Shown here piece by piece: positions 3,001 to 6,000 of a stretch of 10,872 nt of DNA. Location of the stretch: the IMG/VR virus record IMGVR_UViG_2609459844_000005, positions 1 through 10,872 of that record, one strand, 5' to 3'. The stretch's first letter is position 1; the number at the start of each line of letters is the position of its first letter. This DNA comes from a virus. Lineage: Duplodnaviria > Heunggongvirae > Uroviricota > Caudoviricetes. The position numbers were made by a program.

Positions 3001-6000
3001 TTGCGCATTGATGCCGAGATACGCTTCCAGTCTTCGCGGTCGTTGTCGATAACTTCATTTTTTGCCCAGCGATGGATGCTGCCGTCAATGTTTCCGGCAT
3101 CCACATCACCAGGCCAGAGAGCGTAGGCCAGTTCGTCATCCAGTGTTTTCCATGTCTGCTTGTATTCGCGATGAATGGCAGCAATGACCGGGTTGATTTT
3201 TCCTGTTGAATTTTCAGTGTGCTGTTGATTGGTTCTGGCGCGGGCGAGATCAACAACAGACGTGTATTTTCCAGTTTCCTTGCGTTCACCTTCGCGACGT
3301 TTTTTCCAGATGCGCATCTCTGCCTGAATTTCGGGCCATTTGGCACCAGGCTTACATTTATGCTTAACCCACCCGATGGCATGCAGCTTAAGCTCCGGAT
3401 ACATGGCGTTAACATCTGGCATTTTCATCAACGCTTCAACGATATGTCCGTCGAATGTTGCCATGTCTTCCTGCAACAATTCCTGTGCGCTAATAACCAT
3501 ATCAACGGTGATGTTTTCACATGTGTCGAACTTAACCATGACAGCGTTCTGTACTTCAGGGGCCAGCTTGTCAAAAGTGACGTTCATCGGATCGGATTCA
3601 GTCTCAACCGGGACAAAGGAAGCAGACTCCTCATCCCAGCGGTTTTCCTGCATATATTCAGCATCCCAGGAATCGAGGGCAGGGCGGGGTATACCGGGTT
3701 TATCCTCGCAAACAAGAAATTTATAAGCGCAGTCCTGAGCAGCCGGATAATGTTCCAGGAATTGCCAGTGAAATTTTGCTCGAGCACGGCGTTCGTCGCC
3801 AGCTTCAATGGCAGTGGCTACAGCGACTGCACCTTCTTCCTTTATTGCCTGTTCGTCCGGAATGGCGGCGCAAATAAAGACTTTACTCATTTTGTTTTAC
3901 CTCATTACAGATTTAAGGGTGAACAAATCCCTGCCATTGCTGGCATATAAGAATGAAATCGGATGTTTATTACGGAACTGTTTTAAAGACCTGCCGGGAT
4001 TTCGTTATTATCCTGGTGAATAACTTTATCGACCGGGTAACAGTTACCGGGAATTTTCTGTTCGGTTGCTGCAGTCACACACTCCTGCATTGTCCTGTGA
4101 ACACTGACTGCAATATCAACTGGCTCTCCGGAAACAAGAAAAACTGTCAGAACAAGTGCAAATGCTGTATTCATTGCCAGCATCCTTTTTGTATCGGACG
4201 TAAACGGGCCAGCATTGAAAGAATGCATATTTTATTTAATAGCTCCCGTTCGTGTTTTCTCTTGTTAATGGCATCTTCAGTAAATACAGGGTTACTGATA
4301 GTGACACCAATTTCAAAACAACCTTCAGACGTATTAACGTTTGGTAATAACGTTTCCATTATCGCGTCCTCAACAATGAATTTTGTGATGCGGTGCCTGG
4401 TGCCTCCAGGTGACGTTAACCAGTTAACAATTAACGCCGGATAACTCCGGATGGTTGGATAAGCTGTAGTGAGCGAATGCCGGATACCAAAACAGCCGTT
4501 CTTGTTGCCAGGGAGTTTGACAGGAAAGGTGACTGGCGAATGAAATGGGCGACTTACATCCCGGGTCATCCTGACGCTAATGATGGGTGGATAATACCTG
4601 GTGCGTCGTGGATACCATCACACTGGATGCCTCTACCAGAACCGCCGCAGGAGGTGCGCCAATGAACTGGCCTGAAGCATTTGCAATTACAGGCGTTGCT
4701 ATGGCTATCGCTTTTTTAGTATATGTTATTTGTCGGTGGGGGTAAAAACGTTCGCCGGGATTAACACCAAAGGAGGGAATATGTCGGATGATATATCACT
4801 GGCAATGGAAGGTGCGCTGGCTGTTGTTGCTGTTGTGGGCGTTTACTGCCTGGTTGTGTTTTTGATGGATCGACTAGGGAACTGAATTCATTACGATATG
4901 GGAATTCCCATATCGGGTAAAAACGGTTTGCGGTAAAGCGAGAGTTAAGTAGAATTGCAGCGGGTGCTTGAGGCTATCTGTCTCAGGCATGAACACCAAA
5001 AGGCAGATAGAGAAAAGCCCCAGTTAACATTACGCGTCCTGCAAGACGCTTAACATTAATCTGAGGCCCAATCTATGTCTCACAAATGTAGGTTAGCCTC
5101 TTACGTGCCGAAAGGCAAGGAGAAGCAGGCTATGAAGCAGCAAAAGGCGATGTTAATCGCCCTGATCGTCATCTGTTTAACCGTCATAGTGACGGCACTG
5201 GTAACGAGGAAAGACCTCTGCGAGGTACGAATCCGAACCGGCCAGACGGAGGTCGCTGTCTTCACAGCTTACGAACCTGAGGAGTAAGAGACCAGGCGGG
5301 GGAGAATCCCTCGCCACCTCTGATGTGTCAGGCATCCTCAACGCACCCGCACTTAACCCGCTTCGGCGGGGTTTGTTTTTTTCTGGCATTCTGGTTTACA
5401 ATTCGCACACCAGCCTGAACAACTGGCACCTGCTGCGCCAGCAGAGACAACCGATGGCGCACGATACCAAATTACACAATTCTGATGATTCTGCCGTCTT
5501 TGCCAGCAGGCACGGGCGGCGTTCCCGCACTTTCAAATCTGACTGGTTCCAGCATCCCCCATGCACTGAAGAACAGGCCGAGTGGCTAATTCAGTGCTAC
5601 CGCAGACACGGATACGAGATTAAGAAAGCCCTCAGCCTCGATTATCGTCACTGGATAATCTCCGTCAGGCTTCCTTACTCCGAACGCCCACCGCGTCCGT
5701 CCCGCACATTCCAGCAACGCATCTGGAGGTAACGTGCGGGTATTACTTCGACCTGTTCTGGTACCGGAACTCGGGCTGGTGATCGTTAAGCCGGGCCGTG
5801 AATCCATGCCGGTATTCCACAATACCCGGGTACTGGTGGAGCCGGAACCGAAAAGCATGCGTAATCTGCCGTCCGGGGTCGTTCCTGCCGTTCGCCAGCC
5901 GCTGGTGGAAGACAAAACATTGCTGCCGTTTTTCAGTAACGCACGGGTAATTCGTGCTGCTGGTGGTGCTGGTGCATTGTCTGACTGGCTGTTGCGCAAT

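Follow-up and report, generated by a model that had tools for sequence, protein, structure and literature searches.

The window analyzed here, a stretch of 10,872 nucleotides held as IMG/VR virus record IMGVR_UViG_2609459844_000005, is the left half of a Qin-like lambdoid prophage inserted beside potC in the Escherichia coli chromosome, and comparison with intact relatives makes it very likely that a single internal deletion of ~6.3 to 7.0 kb grounded this prophage in one step. The window is 100% identical to positions 5525 to 16396 of a 16.4-kb source locus (L005) in the E. coli draft assembly GCA_000703525.1 (contig JNPF01000021.1, 264,710 bp). Since potC, potD, ycfZ, cobB, and nagK lie on the contig to the left of the window and of its integrase gene (int), the prophage was integrated beside potC in an E. 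coli chromosome. The contig ends 2 bp past the window, within a nanS-p (SASA/DUF1737) gene, and the right half of the prophage lies beyond this end. A potC-int-xis-exo-ydfD-dicB block is present at the same site in 640 complete E. coli genomes.

An earlier note on this DNA had regarded the element as a deletion derivative, a view that is supported by alignment to six intact relatives. Megablast searches against phages and complete E. coli genomes returned two homology blocks, one running to position 4443 and the other starting at 4437. The relatives compared were six loci with an intact central region (L002, L003, L004, L006, L009, and L011) and phage HannyBb (L001). All seven were collinear with the window as far as 4443 and from 4437 onward, with 96 to 99.6% identity, and the BLAST breakpoints were identical across relatives. 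Between these sharp breakpoints, each of the six intact loci carried a discrete extra segment, measuring 6,250, 6,277, 6,757, 6,757, 6,803, and 7,017 bp. The distance from dicB to hok is ~7.5 kb in L002 and L013 versus 772 bp in the window, and in L013, taken from among the 640 complete genomes above, the interval from dicB to hokD is occupied by racR, a helix-turn-helix (HTH) gene, ydaT, a replication gene, ydaV, and others.

Annotation together with Pfam and Rfam matches in the relatives revealed what the missing segment contains. In order, these are DicF, a ydfC-like gene, a DUF1391 (ydfA-like) gene, a repressor gene (HTH_3 or LexA family, varying by relative), a cro-like gene, and YdaT, followed by an O-like replisome organizer (HTH_36), DUF977, several small open reading frames (ORFs), DUF4014, and the first ~227 codons of a DUF551 gene. 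In the window, the DUF551 gene is accordingly truncated near codon 227 of its 300, and the genes for the repressor, the cro-like protein, and the O-like replication protein are gone. The segment also holds a ParE/PaaA2 toxin-antitoxin pair in L004 (positions 4389 to 4870 of that locus), beside the repressor, which shows that the cargo of the immunity region varies.

The absence of immunity and replication modules, as claimed in the earlier note, was borne out both in the window and in the 16.4-kb source locus. Pfam searches found no HTH_3, Peptidase_S24, cro-like, N, or replication-initiator domain among the called genes of the source locus, and a relaxed Pfam scan found no repressor or replication domain in the unannotated small ORFs of the window. 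The note had also named repressor and replication genes elsewhere in the element as a finding that would overturn its interpretation. When the dicB-hok segments of the relatives were compared with the source locus by tblastx and blastn, no displaced copy was detected in its 16.4 kb, apart from one trivial match of 31 residues to the small ORF. Likewise, the Rfam DicF model had no match at gathering score in the window; it is present in L004 (3042 to 3093) and L011 (142 to 193) at 76.7 bits, and in the relatives DicF sits 91 bp beyond the left breakpoint, upstream of dicB. One candidate for a displaced repressor, a 65-residue ORF at 8215 to 8412, shows a weak winged-helix resemblance (TrmB, E value of 0.0026; MarR_2 and HTH_24 weaker; all below cutoff). 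It was rejected because it occupies the same location in intact relatives; it is kept at this position in an Stx2d phage as well. Judged by the features of the Qin-type group, the window contains the early-left operon (YdfE-type exonuclease, DUF1482, and dicB, beside int and xis) and, on the rightward side, the hokD/DUF968 (ydfU)/Q block. Upstream of the dicB operon, it lacks a repressor and cro pair of the dicA/dicC type and the PL/PR-like promoters of such a pair, and it lacks DicF between ydfC and dicB. These immunity-locus and DicF features are absent because of the deletion.

The junction was resolved by setting the flanks of the seven relatives side by side. In the window it reads GCCGGATA/ACTCCGG, with the slash marking the join, or over a longer stretch ...AATTAACGCCGGATA/ACTCCGGATGG... 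The left parent in the relatives reads GCCGGATA/CAGAG (longer, GCCGGATA CAGAGAATCC), and the right parent reads TCCGGTA/ACTCCGG (longer, TCCGGTA ACTCCGGAT). The parental flanks share only CCGG(A)TA, which lies inside a hairpin with a 5-bp stem, CCGGA-TAAC-TCCGG, matched by the minus-strand terminator scan at 4450 to 4437. Because this microhomology is only imperfect, at 6 of 7 bases (CCGGATA and CCGGTAA), it indicates a join that would have formed by illegitimate recombination of the slippage or end-joining type. Deletion mediated by an insertion sequence (IS), by site-specific recombination, or by homologous recombination was ruled out, there being no IS scar, no att-like site, and no long, inverted, or direct repeat beyond the 7-mer. 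On the side of the right breakpoint, the sequence just upstream of GGCAACT(A/C)TCCGGTAACTCCGG is of two unrelated types, one in L003, L004, and L006 and the other in L002, L009, and L011. On the right, the break thus falls on a mosaic boundary, where the conserved C-terminal domain of the DUF551 type begins.

The deletion is a singleton event. Exact junction strings of 26 to 35 nucleotides had 0 matches in GTDB species-representative genomes, IMG/VR, and JGI metagenomes, and megablast searches with 3900 to 5800 and with 4300 to 4600 found no junction-spanning record in 5,426 complete E. coli genomes. A look-up of a 45-residue ORF linked to the junction led back to the same contig only. The join also creates an ATG frame of 132 residues on the minus strand (4171 to 4569), in frame with dicB and adding 70 N-terminal residues, which are the antisense of the DUF551 remnant plus the dicB leader. 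This extended DicB ORF is not a called gene in any assembly on record and is probably meaningless.

The earlier note had put about 1.1 kb between the first leftward gene and the Q operon; its coordinates were right, the distance from the end of dicB to the start of a 92-residue ORF being 1,094 bp (4360 to 5453). Its description of this gap as holding micro-ORFs and a hok gene, with no HTH repressor, was confirmed by Pfam and Rfam scans. Besides the dicB leader and a terminator, the gap contains only micro-ORFs, a gene remnant, and a hok/sok locus. The gap and the genes bounding it comprise the following features.

4171 to 4359, minus strand: dicB, cell-division inhibitor, 62 residues (Pfam DicB, E value of 1.7e-37, full length; annotated dicB in L002 and L013)
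4360 to 4443, minus strand: surviving native dicB leader, 84 bp (left homology to all relatives stops at 4443)
4437 to 4443: deletion junction (flanks of the seven relatives; BLAST breakpoints)
4444 to 4665, plus strand: 3' remnant of the DUF551 gene, ~73 codons (Pfam DUF551, E value of 4.5e-14, profile positions 9 to 68 of 68)
4608 to 4745, plus strand: second micro-ORF
4781 to 4885, plus strand: hydrophobic micro-ORF, 34 residues (position kept in intact relatives)
4928 to 4955, plus strand: candidate hok promoter, TTGCGG-16-TAGAAT (read by eye, no tool match)
4962 to 5287, plus strand: sok/mok/hok type I toxin-antitoxin locus, hok messenger RNA leader with antisense Sok (Rfam sok RF01794, 120 bits, 4962 to 5137)
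5075 to 5287, plus strand: mok
5132 to 5287, plus strand: hok (Pfam HOK_GEF, E value of 3e-23; annotated hokD in relatives)
5357 to 5385, plus strand: intrinsic terminator ending the hok transcript, CCCGC-TTCG-GCGGG followed by a T-run (terminator scan and sequence)
5454 to 5732, plus strand: ORF of unknown function, 92 residues, first of the nin/Q-side block (PHROG 1212, unknown function)

The ribosome-binding site of dicB is retained with the 84-bp leader. The first in-frame start of the DUF551 remnant is an ATG at 4477, giving an ORF of 62 residues that is identical to the C-terminal 62 residues of the intact gene, a 300-residue ORF in L011 (5647 to 6549). Both micro-ORFs are membrane-like. 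The 34-residue one is a called gene in L003, L004, and L006 to L012 and a hypothetical protein in L002, and it had no family match in Pfam and PHROG searches. The candidate hok promoter stops 6 nucleotides before the Rfam sok/hok-leader match.

The remaining genes of the window lie on either side of this region, and comparison with Pfam and PHROG showed that all retained genes are full length. The int gene is intact, equals in length its relatives at the same potC-adjacent site, and has 98.8 to 98.9% DNA identity to prophages beside potC in complete E. coli genomes.

1 to 1119, minus strand: tyrosine integrase (int), 372 residues (Pfam Arm-DNA-bind_1 and Phage_integrase; L005 gene 5525 to 6643)
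1088 to 1357, minus strand: excisionase (xis), 89 residues (PHROG 629, E value of 4.6e-26; Pfam Exc, E value of 7e-5)
1419 to 3890, minus strand: YdfE-type exonuclease of the early-left operon, 823 residues (Pfam YdfE_N, YdfE_C, and Rv2179c-like; PHROG 2082 exonuclease, full length)
3983 to 4174, minus strand: ydfD-like DUF1482 protein, 63 residues (Pfam DUF1482, E value of 3.7e-25)
5734 to 6789, plus strand: DUF968/YdfU-like HNH protein, 351 residues (Pfam DUF968; PHROG 96 HNH endonuclease)
6790 to 7170, plus strand: RusA Holliday-junction resolvase, 126 residues (Pfam RusA)
7167 to 7988, plus strand: Q-type late antiterminator, 273 residues (Pfam Antiterm PF03589; PHROG 127 anti-termination protein Q-like, E value of 3e-110)
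8215 to 8412, plus strand: ORF of 65 residues (PHROG 331, unknown function)
8563 to 9612, plus strand: N6/N4 DNA methyltransferase
9662 to 9911, plus strand: three transfer RNA (tRNA) genes (Met-CAT, Arg-TCG, Arg-TCT)
9989 to 10179, plus strand: small RNA STnc100 (Rfam, 139 bits)

Transcription of ydfABC-dicF-dicB-ydfDE in Qin begins upstream of ydfA at dicBp, which is the sole promoter found there; dicBp is repressed by DicA, and its derepression is toxic via DicB and DicF (PMC10448788). The gene starting at 4359, which the earlier note had called the first leftward gene, is thus promoter-proximal in the window but not naturally so, as the promoter-proximal third of the operon has been deleted along with the promoter. 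A consensus scan of 4100 to 5800 gave 3 minus-strand promoter matches versus 2.1 expected by chance, and Sok transcription, as read from the sequence, ends at its own hairpin and U-run near 5000. With the matches at chance level and Sok ending where it does, the analogy with Qin suggests that dicB is most likely silent. On the plus strand, the same scan found no promoter consensus in 4100 to 5800 and thus none in 5390 to 5453; the promoters that had been proposed in 4360 to 4476 and 5390 to 5453 gained no support from it. The PR-equivalent promoter is deleted, and the only candidate upstream of the Q block is the hok promoter, followed by the strong terminator at 5357 to 5385, which suggests that Q and the late genes are probably without autonomous expression. 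The earlier note had reasoned that the Q operon must be driven by some other promoter. The loss of the PR equivalent agrees with the premise of that proposal, but with no plus-strand promoter in the scanned region it is more likely that Q is simply silent.

We propose that one deletion fused the dicB leader, 84 bp ahead of the gene, to the 300-codon DUF551 gene at about codon 227. This event would have removed together DicF, the ydfA/B/C-like genes, the PL-equivalent promoter (dicBp), the repressor gene, and the cro-like gene with the PR-equivalent promoter, as well as YdaT, the O-like replication initiator, DUF977, and about five small nin-side ORFs. Replication and the lysis-lysogeny switch would both have been lost. 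By analogy with Qin, dicB would have lost its only known promoter, and the operon running from the 92-residue ORF through DUF968 and rusA to Q would have lost PR and would now sit behind the hok terminator with no recognizable promoter. Given that derepressed DicB and DicF are toxic (PMC10448788), viable loss of the repressor must take the early-left promoter along, as has happened in the window. At most, the element might be complemented by, or recombine with, a co-resident lambdoid phage.

Several points weigh against a single deletion in this prophage. The junction is known from one draft assembly only, with no second independent genome. The size of the deletion is given as a range of 6,250 to 7,017 bp, as it is taken from several relatives rather than from one exact parent. 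The late region, and any gene moved there, lies past the contig end. Finally, the promoter statements come from a crude consensus scan and analogy with Qin, and it is conceivable that a promoter is weak or not of the sigma-70 type or that transcription reads through the hok terminator. The first of these points bears on whether the junction could be an assembly or sequencing chimera, with the dicB side of one prophage misjoined to the DUF551/hok side of another or an intact prophage actually present. Such an error is unlikely, although the source assembly is a draft in short contigs, this one breaks off in nanS-p, a repeat typical of prophages, E. coli genomes often carry several lambdoid prophages (a median of 4 places per genome, and up to 24, match 3900 to 5800), and the junction was found in no other collection searched. 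Repeat-driven misjoins fall in shared sequence; here, the parental flanks are unrelated on either side of the imperfect 7-mer. The chimera that the earlier note had allowed for is disfavored, as the junction lies neither in a shared repeat nor at Ns or a gap, sits in a 265-kb contig at 10.9 kb from its end, and is a novel sequence of a kind that must exist in the reads. That the immunity and replication genes are instead kept in a noncanonical position of the same element is very unlikely. The window does stop 2 bp short of the contig end, with the right half of the prophage beyond, but all relatives hold these genes between dicB and DUF551, none is rearranged in such a way, and the available 16.4 kb contain no trace of the segment. 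Moreover, one breakpoint splits a gene, which fits loss over transposition.

The earlier note had also called the element possibly satellite-like, and a mobile element that depends on a co-resident lambdoid helper, having discarded its own genes for replication and immunity, would be compatible with an intact int and xis and with full-length Q, rusA, and hok. Other lambdoid phages are known to rescue defective lambdoid prophages by recombining with them or complementing them, as in the lambda qin and lambda rev hybrids, and this known rescue lends the idea some plausibility. However, no replication, packaging-redirection, or helper-sensing gene was seen: the called genes of the locus include no replicon or primase of its own and no helper-responsive master repressor, and the 10.9 kb available, from which the element runs on past the contig end, hold no capsid- or packaging-redirection gene. 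A single deletion in an ordinary phage explains the architecture fully, and this deletion, a single occurrence, does not mark a conserved lineage, so that we regard a satellite as extremely improbable. The deletion itself could have been selected as domestication rather than being neutral decay, leaving a rewired, host-beneficial module with intact dicB, int, xis, and exonuclease. Under such selection, the repressor, dicBp, and DicF would have been lost together while dicB was kept, protecting against ManXYZ-using phages, and dicB might be controlled anew, perhaps conditionally, from the hok/DUF551 side, or the 132-residue N-terminally extended DicB (4171 to 4569) might be made. We give this interpretation very little credence and retain the single grounding deletion as an event of ordinary decay.

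The 92-residue ORF at 5454 to 5732, described as rem-like in the earlier note, proved unrelated to Rem. It gave no BLASTP alignment to K-12 Rem (83 residues) at an E value of ≤100, whereas an 83-residue ORF of HannyBb, used as a positive control, is 96% identical to K-12 Rem. At the DNA level, the 92-residue ORF has its homolog in Qin in the unannotated stretch that separates rem from ydfU. The idea of a Rem antirepressor orphaned by the loss of its repressor was ruled out on these grounds. The true rem gene resides in a 422-bp cassette of Qin and HannyBb, in place of which the window and its closest relatives carry 56 bp (5381 to 5436). The rem cassette is a presence/absence polymorphism independent of the large deletion.

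In the late region, the scaffold formed by Q, the methylase gene, the three tRNA genes (Met-CAT, Arg-TCG, Arg-TCT), and nanS-p is 93% identical to that of an Stx2d-converting phage (LC567830). The 1,335-bp stx2AB segment of this phage (positions 2181 to 3515 of L016) is absent from the window, which has 6 bp (9950 to 9955, within 9912 to 9988) instead. The interval from 9912 to 9988, between the tRNA-Arg and STnc100, is an empty stx site. The STnc100 match, ~2 kb downstream from Q, is flanked by the tRNA cluster and by nanS-p and recurs in the intact locus L004. For strain typing, this means that the element carries the late-region scaffold of Stx phages with an empty stx site.

Among known systems, the closest is Qin (Kim) of K-12, which has the same families in the same order, with intQ, ydfE, ydfD, and dicB on one side and hokD, ydfU (DUF968), and Q on the other. 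DNA identity between Qin and the window is 96% over dicB-ydfD-ydfE, 98% over hokD, and 83% over ydfU. Qin is likewise defective, having lost replication and morphogenesis genes, with ydfE and int truncated, but it keeps dicA/dicC, dicBp, ydfABC, and DicF and has rem and relBE. In the window, by comparison, the block running from dicA/dicC through DicF to replication is lost and rem is absent, whereas int, xis, and the exonuclease are intact. Intact Qin-like/PPompW-like temperate phages and prophages (HannyBb, PP925841; PhiR42_1; PPompW phages; the prophages beside potC in 640 complete E. coli genomes) are 92 to 99% identical over the early-left genes and hok-DUF968 and collinear to either side of the junction, and they carry a 5- to 9-kb immunity/replication segment between dicB and hok that the window is without. 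The same kind of architecture is found in the cryptic prophage DLP12 of K-12, in which intD-xisD'-exoD' abut peaD'-renD...ninE-ybcO-rusA-quuD (P'/ren-nin-rusA-Q), with no cI, cro, N, or O. DLP12 differs in belonging to another lineage (lambda-like exo, NinE/YbcO, and quuD), in its att site at argU, and in its pseudogenes and IS3/IS5 insertions, and it is far more decayed; the window shows one clean deletion with intact flanking genes.

With DLP12 as a precedent, the phenomenon is the already known, ordinary decay of prophages by deletion, and outside correct annotation the case is of little consequence. The fitting label for the element is a defective Qin-like prophage that is replication and immunity negative, and counts of inducible phages should leave it out. 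Within these bounds, it offers a clean, base-resolved example of the one-step grounding of a lambdoid prophage.

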